From an uncultured delta proteobacterium (lineage in GTDB: Bacteria > Desulfobacterota > Binatia > UBA9968), in contig CAWJZV010000028.1 of assembly GCA_963847445.1 (NCBI GenBank), positions 1 through 64,000 on the forward strand: DNA of 64,000 nt, given 5' to 3'. The stretch's first letter is position 1, and each line of letters opens with the position of its first letter. Shown here piece after piece: positions 6,028 to 9,716 of this stretch. A model generated the notes under the pieces. That model saw only the letters and a list, made by a program, of their open reading frames with translations. It was not told where the DNA came from and did not search any database. The position numbers and the translations under genes are program-made.

Positions 6028-6031
<4 letters not shown>

Positions 6032-6186
6032 CGTTCAGACTCTTGTTTCTTCTCGTCACCTTGGCGTCGAGACTCGACGCCGCGCGCAGACGACATTCAG
6101 GTCGGCACTCCCAGGCGCGGCAACACCCAACGCATCAGGACAATGTAGGCGACGAAAAAGCCAATAAACCATAAGCCGTCAGTCAT
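6028..6186 (-). CDS. Candidate small membrane selenoprotein, copy 1 (52 aa if TGA codon 30 is read as Sec)
   Basis: [62 protein letters not shown]; final stop overlaps ackA ATG (ATGA); paralogous to 9561-9716. Confidence 0.65.
6063..6081 (-). promoter_or_regulatory. SECIS-like hairpin, copy 1
   Basis: mRNA GGCGUCGA-GUC-UCGACGCC; G-led loop begins 23 nt after the in-frame UGA (6099-6097). Confidence 0.55.
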
Positions 6187-6202
6187 TTTCTTTCACCTCC
6201 GA

Positions 6203-6883
6203 TCAATGATTGGTAATCCGCCCATCGATCATGTGATAGACCCGGTCGAAGCCCTCGATCATTCTTTCATCATGGGTAACCACAATCACCGCCGCGTGCT
6301 GGGTTCGTCCCAGATTGCGCAGCAGCTCCATCACCGCCTTGCCCCGTTCGGTATCGAGAGCCGCGGTCGGTTCATCGGCCAGAATCACGGCGGGATCGTT
6401 GATCACCGCTCGGGCAACCGCAACCCGCTGCTGTTCGCCGCCCGACAGCGTGGCGGGATAGATGTCGGCACGATGGCCGAGATCGAGACGTTTGAGGAGC
6501 TCGCTTGCGCGCGTCATCGCTTCGTGATGCGAAATGCCGTTAAGCGTGAGCACGAGGGCGACATTTTCCAACGAGGTCAGAAACGGAATCAGATTGTAAG
6601 CCTGAAAGATGATCCCCATGCGCTGGCGCCGCAGCTTTCGGTCGTCGGTCAAAACCCGCTCGCCGTCGAACACCAATTGATTGTCAATCGCGATCTGTCC
6701 GGTGGTCGGCGGATCGATCAGCGAAAGCGCGCGCAGCAGCGTCGTCTTGCCCGATCCGCTCGGCCCCATCAGCGCGACGATCTCGCCCGGCTCAATCGAC
6801 AGCTGCGCATCCTTGAGCGCGACGACCCGGCCGTCTCCCTGGCCGAAAATCTTGGTGACATTCTGCGCCGCCACCGCAGCCAT
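6203..6883 (-). CDS. ABC transporter ATP-binding protein (LolD/MacB/DevA-like)
   Basis: [27 protein letters not shown]. Confidence 0.92.
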
Positions 6884-8079
6884 TATGCGCCTCCTCCCAT
6901 CGCCGTCGTCGGGTCGATAGCGAGGGCGCGGCGTATGCCCAGCAGGCTCGCCAGCACACAGATGACGATGACAATGCCGAACAGGATGGATTGATCGAAG
7001 GCCAGGATGGCGACACGGCGCGGGAAATAATCATAAGTCAGATTGATCAGCAGCGCGCCGAATAGATAGCCCAGCAGCCCCAGACTGAGCGACTCCTGCA
7101 TGATCAAAGCGCCAATTTTTAGATTCGGCGCACCGATAATTTTGAGCGTGGCGATATCGCGAGTCTTCTCCATGGTCATCGTGAAAATGATCAGCGCGAT
7201 GACCACGGTGGAGACCATGAGCAGGATGATTCTGAAGAGCATGATTTGCTGGCGCGCCCGTTCGATCACGTTCTTCGCCAGCACCTCTTCCTGCTCCACC
7301 GTGGTCATCGCCCGGTAGTGATTCCAGCGCTCAATGCGCGCGGCGATCTCCTTGGCATCGGCCCAGGGCTCAAGCCGCACTAGAATCGCATTCGCCAGGT
7401 TGGTGTTCTGGGTTATTGAAGCGAGCGCCGTCACCGAAACGGCGGCAAGCGCCGGATTGGCATTCAAATCCGCCTGCAAGCGCGCCCGCTCATTGCGCAC
7501 CGCCTCATTGGCTTTGACAAACTGCAGCTCCTGGGCGTCTTGCAACGAAACATACGCGGTCGAATCGCCGGAGCTGGAGACGATTCCTTCAGTCAGCCCG
7601 ACCACGGTAAAGGTCATCCGGCCCATGGCAATGCGCGTGCCGATCGGAATCCCGGCCTTGCGATCCAGTACCATCTCGAAACGGCTCGCGGCCAGCGGGC
7701 GGCCTGAGGAAACGGCCGGCGGCCCGCCCAGATTGCCAGGCCGGTAACCGATGATTTGCGTGCGAATTGAAGCGGAGCCGTATTCAAGTTGAACCGACTG
7801 AAACGCAATCGGGCTCGCTTCGCGCACACCCGGCACCGCGCGCACTACGCGATAAAGGTCGTCCGGGATGCGCGAGTTCTCGGCGAACGGACCGTTGGTG
7901 TCTTTCTGCACCACCCACAGATCGGCGCCGGGCGCGCGCACGATGCTGAGCGCATCTTCCACCATACCGCGATAAATGCCGCCCATCGCCATGACCGTCC
8001 CAAGCAACAAGCCGACACCGATGGCGGTCAGGATGAACCTGCCCAAGCGATATTTTACGTCGCGAATGGCGAGGTTCAT
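6883..8079 (-). CDS. ABC transporter permease (FtsX/MacB/DevC-like)
   Basis: Likely start MNLAIRD at 8079; N-terminal TM, periplasmic domain, [14 protein letters not shown] motif, 3 C-terminal TMs. Confidence 0.88.
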
Positions 8080-9368
8080 GGTTGCTGCTTTGCTGCCGCA
8101 ATCGCATCGGACCTCTGAGTAGCGCCGGCGACGCGGCGCCCCTCGTTCTTCAGATCGGCCAGTTTTCCCGGCGCGACCATCACTTGCTCTCCACCGGTAA
8201 ATCCTTCGATGACTTCGATCCACCCGGCGGGATCGACTACCCCGAAACTCGCGCGTCGAAAGCGCATGCGGCCATCGACCACCGTCCACGCTCCCGCGCC
8301 TTTTGACGACTGCACCACCGCGGCCAACGGCAACGCGGTTACTCTTCGCGCCGCTGGCCGAATCGTCGCTTCTGCCTGCTGGCCGATAGTCAGACGCTCA
8401 GGAGGCTCATCAAAGTGATGTCGACTGTAAGCTGCTCGGTGACACGATCACTTTCGCGACGGATTCTGACGACCTTACCGTGGAAAGCGCGGCCAGGCAT
8501 TGAGCGCAGCGTACACGTTAGCCGCATCGCCTCGCGCAATCGGGCCTGCTTCACGCTCGTCGACGAACACCGTGACCCAGATCGACGCCGGATCGGCGAG
8601 CTTGAGAATCGGTGTGCCGGGATTGACCGCCGCACCCAATTCCAGTTCGCGGCTGATTACAATGCCATCGATAGGACTGGCCATGGTCGTTTCCGCGTTC
8701 CTGGCTCGCGCCGAGGCGAGCGCCGCAGCGCCAGCGGCGATATCTTGCGGCACGGCTTTCAGGGCAATTTCCTGCGCCGACACGTCTTTGGCGGCCGCTT
8801 CACGCAAAGCCTCGGCACTGCGCAGCTCGGCGTCGGCCGACTTGGCGGCATTAAGCCGCTCGTCGAGATCCATCGGCGCCACTAAGTCGGTGGCAGCCAA
8901 CTTCCGCCAGCGTTCGGCGTTGGTCTGCGCGAGCAATTGGTTGGAGCGCGCCTTGGCGATCGCTGCGTCAGCCGCCGCGAGTCCGGCTTGGGCGCGCAGC
9001 ACAGCCGCCTCTTGCGTCAGCAAAGCGAATTTGACGCGCTCCAGGTTTGCCGCCGCGCGCTCCACCTCCGCGCTCAACTCAGAGTTCTCCAATTTGACCA
9101 ACACCTGGCTAGTCCGCACAACATCACCTTGGTCGACATTCATTGCGGAAATCCGGCCAGTGATTTTAGCGGCGAGCGCAACCACAAGCTTGGCTTCAAC
9201 GCTGCCAACGCCCTGCACTGCTGGGCGGATCTCGCGCACGGAGACTTCAGCCGTGGTCACCTGAGCGGGCCGCAGCCAAAACCACAACGCTGCCGCGACA
9301 ATCACCAGCGCCACGGCGACCATAAGACCGTTAGCTAATATCGAAGGCAAACGCCGTTTCATCGTCAT
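8076..9368 (-). CDS. Efflux membrane-fusion (periplasmic adaptor) protein, frameshifted
   Basis: KITGRI...VDQGDVV and SPIDGIV lipoyl halves, coiled-coil hairpin, C-terminal IEVIEG. Confidence 0.85.
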
Positions 9369-9453
9369 TTTCCCGTGCCATCAATTCTCATCCATCCGCC
9401 CGGCCCTTCATCCTTTGAGAAAAGTACGTCCTCAACACGTACTGAGGCAGCAG

Positions 9454-9561
9454 GCGATCGACGATACCGTAGCCAAGCTTGCGAGTTTCAACCCTCCCAC
9501 TCGTGTCGATTGCGTGAAATTTGCGAGCGGACCCGCCACAGTTGTGCGCGAGGTTTCTCAT
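9454..9561 (-). pseudogene. Remnant of an ackA 5' end
   Basis: MRNLAHNCGGSARKFHAIDTSGRVETRKLGYGIVDR aligns with Ack[37 protein letters not shown]. Confidence 0.7.
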
Positions 9562-9716
9562 CAGCCAACGTCTTTGTCTTTGTCACCGCTCTTGCGTCGA
9601 GACTCGACGCCGCATGAAGGCGCCATTCAGGTGGGCACACCGAAACCCGGCAATACCCAACGCATGAGCACCACGTAGACCGCTAAGAACATGACGAACC
9701 ACAACCAATCAGACAT
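9561..9716 (-). CDS. Candidate small membrane selenoprotein, copy 2 (51 aa if TGA codon 30 is read as Sec; UxxxxC)
   Basis: AAGGGG RBS; MSDWLWFVMFLAVYVVLMRWVLPGFGVPT-TGA-MAPSCGVESRRKSGDKDKDVG; stop overlaps the next ATG (TGATG). Confidence 0.65.
9594..9610 (-). promoter_or_regulatory. SECIS-like hairpin, copy 2
   Basis: mRNA GCGUCGA-GUC-UCGACGC, identical to copy 1 and at the same distance from the UGA (9629-9627). Confidence 0.55.

Follow-up and report, generated by a model that had tools for sequence, protein, structure and literature searches.

The window analysed here is the whole stretch of 64,000 nucleotides (nt), which lies on contig C28 of the source genome G000, an assembly that is 91.8% complete. 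On its minus strand we found two small related genes, copy 1 and copy 2, each carrying at codon 30 an in-frame UGA that is predicted to encode selenocysteine (Sec, U in one-letter code). A hairpin resembling a bacterial selenocysteine insertion sequence (SECIS) follows each UGA. The features of the two genes are as follows.

6028..6186, minus strand: small gene copy 1, 52 codons, predicted Sec at codon 30; second Cys replaced by Arg (CGC)
6097..6099, minus strand: in-frame UGA of copy 1, proposed Sec codon, aligned with Cys in 81 of 150 representatives
6063..6081, minus strand: SECIS-like hairpin of copy 1, 8 base pairs (bp), loop GUC
9561..9716, minus strand: small gene copy 2, 51 codons, U-x4-C intact
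9627..9629, minus strand: in-frame UGA of copy 2, proposed Sec codon, at codon 30
9594..9610, minus strand: SECIS-like hairpin of copy 2, 7 bp, loop GUC

The coordinates given to the two open reading frames (ORFs) by the first-pass annotation were confirmed, including the TGA at codon 30 and the frame that stays open to a stop overlapping the next start. The good ribosome-binding sites it had described correspond to a Shine-Dalgarno-like, purine-rich stretch 8-10 nt ahead of the ATG in both copies. The membrane helix was likewise recovered: the most hydrophobic 17-residue window begins at residue 5 in both peptides, and both carry ...LMRWVLPxxGVPT directly before the TGA. Past the first TGA, 21-22 more codons are open. 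The final TGA of copy 1 (6030-6028) overlaps the ATG of the acetate kinase gene ackA (6031-6029), and that of copy 2 (9563-9561) overlaps an ATG (9561-9559) that starts a decayed ackA 5' remnant.

The UGA codon is conserved. Through a six-frame search of 41 related genomes including G000, matches were found in 14, G000 among them, and in 12 of the 24 other genomes of the genus. Seventeen of the 18 match rows hold TGA, and the remaining row spans only residues 1-27; all 14 genus loci that could be parsed have TGA at the identical codon. The 13 full-length genus members have 18 invariant columns, T29, M31 and the UGA column among them. When 401 genomes sampled from the phylum were searched with a profile, 161 matched, with TGA in every row displayed (28 match rows were not displayed), and TGA stands at that codon in 23 of 29 phylum loci, the other six being unparsed by the pattern. 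TAA or TAG at this codon was never found among the homologs examined in the genus and phylum sets, as the first-pass annotation had expected of a Sec codon. For the comparisons below we used 37 distinct sequences with UGA (UGA forms), comprising the 14 genus loci and 23 of the 29 phylum loci; the six unparsed phylum loci were dropped.

The codon after the TGA is ATG in 30 of the 37 UGA forms, GCN in six and GGC in one. The frequent ATG would suit an ordinary stop throughout the family, in which case translation would end with a 29-residue peptide, and the hairpin and the frame behind it would be regulatory, acting by translational coupling or as a mini-ORF that starts from this ATG. Two further facts are in keeping with such a stop: in most genus members the long frame ends in a stop that overlaps the next start, and gene callers list 29-residue products (45 of the 52 matches in a word-based protein search were exactly 29 residues, cut at the TGA). 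However, the codon after the TGA varies and so cannot be a conserved start codon, and in the seven forms with GCN or GGC the downstream Cys and the hairpin are retained although no start codon follows the TGA. In 31 of the 37 UGA forms there is a Cys at +5 or +6, and its codon, 5-6 codons on, varies synonymously (TGC in 21, TGT in ten), which argues for translation beyond the UGA and agrees with the conserved downstream frame claimed earlier. Outside the genus, moreover, the downstream genes differ, which does not favour coupling to a particular gene. The frame past the TGA is open for 13-46 codons in all 37 UGA forms; the comparison of its length with the other two frames gave no discrimination, frame +1 often continuing into the next gene.

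Homologs with Cys at the position of the UGA, which the first-pass annotation had proposed to look for, are abundant. One match in the word-based search (P0034) reads through with Cys, and an exhaustive profile search returned 575 proteins at E <= 1e-3. In the best 150 of these, parsed by pattern, the residue at the UGA column is Cys in 81, while 37 proteins end just before the column; Trp is found in 14, Gly in two, Ser and Leu in one each, and 14 were unparsed. The Trp and Gly residues probably represent TGA translated under other codes by gene callers. A second Cys stands at +5 in 71 of the 81 Cys forms, which carry a T-C-M-S-G-x-C motif, and in an alignment of 26 Cys forms the G, the T, the first C and the second C are invariant and Met after the first C is the rule. 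This downstream motif is common to UGA forms and Cys forms. Thus Cys forms read through the same column and have the Met after it too, which is a further point against an ordinary stop. Through a scan of one genome per species we obtained 67 Cys-form loci, whose titles are mostly Planctomycetota, with some Acidobacteriota, Myxococcota or 'Deltaproteobacteria', Nitrospirota, Omnitrophota and others. In one protein of 208 residues (P0123) the Cys form runs into a complete thioredoxin domain (WCGPC); this may be a natural fusion, or adjacent genes merged by a sequencing or gene-calling error.

The family has a simple architecture. It comprises about 50 residues, with one N-terminal hydrophobic helix, the stretch [R/K]W[V/I]LPxxG[V/I]xT and then Sec (UGA) or Cys, usually followed by a second Cys five residues on (U/C-x4-C) and a charged tail of variable length. 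The first-pass annotation had remarked on U-x4-C in copy 2. It is present there, but as the family norm and not as a peculiarity of that copy; it is copy 1 that has lost the second Cys.

The hairpin loop GUC starts 23 nt after the UGA in both copies, as described earlier. The stretch reported as identical between the copies is indeed their longest identical run and coincides with the hairpin, but it measures 20 nt and not 18. The two copies lie in a duplicated segment that spans from the ribosome-binding site to about 110 nt inside ackA, so the identity is partly due to local duplication. Across genomes the evidence is stronger. When the 37 UGA forms were aligned on an 8-pair helix, 80.4% of cells were paired, versus 23.6-38.9% with the partners slid by 1-3 columns; changes on both sides were seen in 48 cells versus 21.5 +/- 3.3 in shuffles (0 of 500 reached 48), and seven of the eight pairs show a double change. 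RNAalifold independently recovered the inner six pairs. UGA forms hold 6.19 of the 8 pairs in register, and 28 of the 37 hold at least six. In 48 distinct Cys forms, whose G+C content is higher than that of the UGA forms, the value is 3.17 of 8, about the random expectation, and only four of the 48 hold at least six. The hairpin is therefore conserved with compensatory changes in UGA forms only and goes with the UGA, as expected of a SECIS. Since it is missing exactly where Cys replaces UGA, a regulatory hairpin behind an ordinary stop fits poorly, and we regard that explanation as very unlikely.

In the bSECISearch model of the bacterial SECIS, the apical loop lies about 16-37 nt after the UGA and has a G early in the loop. 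The present hairpin is similar in its loop start, in its stem with compensatory changes and in the first loop base, which is G in most of the 37 sequences as read by eye from the alignment. It differs in its short stem (6-8 bp), in which no bulged base can be seen, and it has no Rfam match. The UGA context of the selD gene of G000 was folded as a positive control for the geometry, but no clean hairpin resulted.

We conclude, with a probability of about 0.82, that both ORFs belong to a real Sec/Cys protein family that is missing from the domain libraries and selenoprotein catalogues checked. As a prediction from sequence, the selenoprotein interpretation is strongly supported; a conserved UGA, Cys homologs and a downstream hairpin are the standard pattern of evidence for predicted bacterial selenoproteins. 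The domain libraries were Pfam-A and NCBIfam 20.0, searched with the UGA forms read with Cys. No family was significant for the UGA forms or for nine stand-alone Cys forms that were also queried, and P0123 matched only in its thioredoxin part. The nearest ESM Atlas cluster is a 'hypothetical protein' with no Pfam family, at a score of 0.85, below the 0.9 line for more than a lead. Gene callers end the UGA forms at the UGA, and NCBI and other records accordingly list them only as 29-residue stubs. In the 10 papers listed out of 37, none of the strings TCMSG, CMSGAC and GVPTC occurs. Table 1 of a 2026 review (PMC13188914) holds 119 prokaryotic selenoprotein families or subfamilies, none of which fits. 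In their available parts, the deep-Sep paper (PMC12013277) and the BSepDB paper (PMC13326102) make no mention of the family; it could be listed in Table S2 of either. The first-pass annotation, which recognised no named family, was thus right as far as these sources go.

Several observations weigh against the selenoprotein interpretation. Folded as single sequences, the two hairpins of the window are not significant (z -1.93 and -0.72), so the support for the hairpin comes from the cross-genome comparison. Rfam gave no family on the window at gathering scores and no SECIS match; on 5980-6200 at E <= 10 there was only a chance snoRNA match. The second Cys is missing in six of the 37 UGA forms, copy 1 among them. 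At one locus (L033, in the unpublished genome G005) the hairpin is kept and the frame past the UGA is shifted by one base and runs into ackA, which may be either a sequencing error or a decayed copy at this single locus. The neighbours of the UGA forms show no fixed partner or operon: 29 of them in the phylum include two MerR, two zinc ribbon, one DsbD_TM and one AhpC, and in the genus the neighbours are glycogen and acetate genes. Furthermore, selA is present in 371 of the 401 phylum genomes (92.5%), so that its co-occurrence with Sec genes has no power to discriminate. In favour of the interpretation, when the nine genomes with the small gene but no match to selA were examined, a tRNA-Sec scoring above the Rfam cut-off was found in eight, and three of the eight also have a selD with TGA. 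In the ninth, the match to the small gene itself is weak (E 0.007).

The remaining adverse points concern the Sec machinery of G000, which the first-pass annotation had asked for and which was found in part. The genes selA, selB and selD are clustered on contig C14 (191300-196000, L137), and the reading frame of selD contains a TGA as well, in a G-U-x-x-K context (L137 position 3618). By this TGA, the selD of G000 appears to be a selenoprotein gene itself. A tRNA-Sec was not found in G000: among the 150 of 964 candidates that were scored, the best reached 45 bits in Rfam, below the cut-off of 47. ARAGORN called an 82-nt tRNA-SeC(tca) at G000:C2:139122-139203 (L136 323-404), but this had no Rfam tRNA or tRNA-Sec match at E <= 10 and is therefore probably false. 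The tRNA-Sec of the genus, 91 nt long, was found in four of five genus genomes tested, at 74-77 bits, and has no full-length blastn match in G000. On C28 at about 97.05-97.16 kb (L142), outside the window, some 60 nt match one flank of the tRNA-Sec of the relative G004; no tRNA lies at this site, near 97.1 kb, and the other flank is unlike that of the G004 gene. The sel cluster further carries six +1 insertions private to G000 in comparison with G004 and G014, one in selA, four in selB and one near the end of selD. As a result selB is split over four frames and selA has one frame break.

These points raise the possibility that the family is a true selenoprotein family in which Sec decoding has been lost or is failing in this organism, so that the two genes would yield only 29-residue membrane peptides or nothing useful. 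Besides the missing tRNA-Sec and the broken selB and selA, the loss of the second Cys from copy 1 would fit with it. The breaks, however, look like assembly error, with real decay as the alternative. All are single-base insertions and they occur across unrelated genes: ackA in the window has five +1 insertions in about 470 nt relative to the relative G022, whereas the ackA of relatives is intact at 398-399 residues, and public contigs of close relatives are without the extra bases. The private breaks of G000 are all insertions and never deletions, and the phosphorylase gene at 9729-11197 is likewise frame-split. In addition, selD retains its own in-frame TGA, the assembly is incomplete and tRNA genes are often unassembled, and the frame and hairpin are kept in both copies. 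We consider a loss of Sec decoding here improbable, though worth keeping in mind. Among public sequencing runs, the best contains 0.29 of the sampled words, and the contigs recovered are from relatives; a public RNA run is without cover over 6050-6157 and permits no statement on transcription. Of the refuting conditions named in the first-pass annotation, those on the homologs, the downstream frame, the hairpin and the known families came out in favour of the selenoprotein interpretation; for the Sec machinery, selA, selB and selD stand beside frame breaks and a tRNA-Sec that was not found.

The other genes around the two copies are as follows.

4879..6031, minus strand: ackA, acetate kinase; start overlaps the stop of copy 1; frame broken by the five single-base insertions
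9451..9561, minus strand: decayed ackA 5' remnant behind copy 2, 51% over 37 residues; marks the duplicated segment
9368-8475, minus strand: HlyD-type adaptor, between the copies
8289-6883, minus strand: MacB/FtsX-type permease, between the copies
6883-6203, minus strand: ABC ATPase, between the copies
9729..11197, minus strand: alpha-glucan family phosphorylase fragments in several frames (TIGR02094 pieces), upstream of copy 2
4473-3517, minus strand: CBS plus CoA-binding protein, after ackA in minus-strand order

The HlyD-MacB-ABC exporter cassette is flanked by two copies of a segment containing the small gene and the start of ackA, and the upstream ackA start is decayed. We found the same twin layout around exporter genes in G022 (contigs C124 and C193; L022, L035 and L038). 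Since it is shared by a second species, the insertion or duplication predates the species split. The genes of the glgP-exporter-ackA setting named in the first-pass annotation are present, but the link to ackA holds only within the genus, where the small gene precedes ackA or the CBS/CoA-binding gene. Because both copies sit in a duplicated segment with a decayed ackA remnant, and the assembly has many frame breaks, they might be taken for chance ORFs or decayed fragments of the duplication without function. Against this stand the conservation of the gene in 161 of 401 phylum genomes, hundreds of Cys-form relatives in other phyla and the 18 invariant columns across 13 genus members, and we give this explanation almost no credence. 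The same spread over several phyla corrects the earlier view of the pair as a twin curiosity of one operon.

The distribution of the Sec/Cys family within the phylum is patchy. By profile search the small gene is absent from the matches in 12 same-class genomes and one same-family genome outside the genus, and there is no match in 15 of 16 same-order genomes, the sixteenth giving a weak match that contains three stops. Other classes of the phylum commonly have the gene. The helix end of the genus (...YIVLMRW...) is closer to Cys forms of Acidobacteriota and Nitrospirota than to the other UGA forms of the phylum (...VLNRW...). A gene transfer is possible.

Lys and Arg are strongly biased to one side of the helix. 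In the Cys forms their mean number is 0.27 in the N-terminal flank versus 2.99 in the C-terminal flank, which is the richer one in 75 of 81, and by the positive-inside rule the U/C-x4-C pair would be on the cytoplasmic side. Neighbouring genes were parsed at 46 of the 67 Cys-form loci (21 failed the pattern). Of 45 same-strand upstream neighbours, 16 are zf-HC2, six thioredoxin, and four each Usp, rhodanese and metallo-beta-lactamase; the 39 downstream neighbours include nine thioredoxin, six DsbD_TM, four TauE, four DUF302 and three pyridine-nucleotide disulphide oxidoreductase genes. The upstream zf-HC2 proteins have about 85 residues and an H-x3-C-x2-C motif, and they resemble redox-sensing ZAS anti-sigma factors. 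They stand directly upstream of many Planctomycetota Cys forms (L069, L075, L081, L082, L098, L106, L110, L118 and others). A search for an extracytoplasmic function (ECF) sigma gene upstream of these anti-sigma-like neighbours gave a sigma factor in only one of ten crude ORF picks, and we draw no claim from it.

Considering the topology and these neighbours, we infer that the function may be that of a membrane-tethered selenol/thiol redox pair, either relay or sensor. Here the argument is at its weakest; since the neighbours of the UGA forms are not fixed, the redox role rests mostly on the Cys forms of other phyla. In the mechanism we propose, the hairpin would act as a bacterial SECIS recruiting SelB with Sec-tRNA, and the ribosome would decode the UGA as Sec and continue to the stop that overlaps the next gene. 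The helix would then hold the U/C-x4-C pair on the cytoplasmic side of the membrane, where the pair would cycle between selenol/thiol and selenenylsulfide. Anchored in the membrane, it could act as a redox relay or sensor with the help of partners of thioredoxin type, this redox function being the least certain part.

Small single-pass selenoproteins are also found in eukaryotes. SELENOK and SELENOS are single-pass proteins of the endoplasmic reticulum with an N-terminal anchor, Sec near the extreme C-terminus and a SECIS in the 3' untranslated region. They are like the present family in being small and single-pass, with an N-terminal anchor and a disordered cytosolic tail that bears Sec. Unlike them, the present family has its Sec about eight residues after the helix and its hairpin within the coding region, and there is no similarity by Pfam. 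Among bacterial families, the predicted selenoproteins of thiol-oxidoreductase type in Table 1 of the review (PMC13188914) share with it the in-frame UGA, Cys homologs, a hairpin just 3' of the UGA, a nearby partner Cys and an occurrence in Sec-rich anaerobe lineages. They differ in that ours has no thioredoxin fold or known domain, only about 50 residues and a single helix, and has U-x4-C where theirs is UxxC or CxxU. The MerT-like (PF02411), YeeE/YedE (PF04143) and SO_0444 family transporters of the same table also have Sec or Cys at or near the membrane, but they are multi-pass proteins with Pfam or NCBIfam models of their own, none of which matched here. Two UGA-form loci have MerR-family neighbours.

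In its fullest form our proposal is of an overlooked selenoprotein family, possibly the smallest in bacteria: a single-pass selenopeptide of about 50 residues with a cytoplasmic U-x4-C, carried by roughly 40% of the sampled genomes of a Sec-rich phylum and acting as a redox relay or sensor that has thioredoxin, DsbD-type and ZAS anti-sigma proteins as its partners. We put this forward tentatively, at slightly below even odds for the whole. If true, it would add a common, very small and membrane-bound family to the bacterial selenoproteome. Short ORFs cut at the UGA escape gene callers and Cys-homolog selenoprotein screens alike. The genes would also offer a compact natural cassette of UGA plus hairpin for the study of Sec insertion, in which Sec is encoded as early as codon 30 and the next 70 nt or so take in both the hairpin and the stop. 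The Cys forms, for their part, would tie a conserved membrane peptide with C-x4-C to genes of thiol stress and sulfur handling in Planctomycetota, Acidobacteriota and Myxococcota, and their function could be tested in culturable strains.

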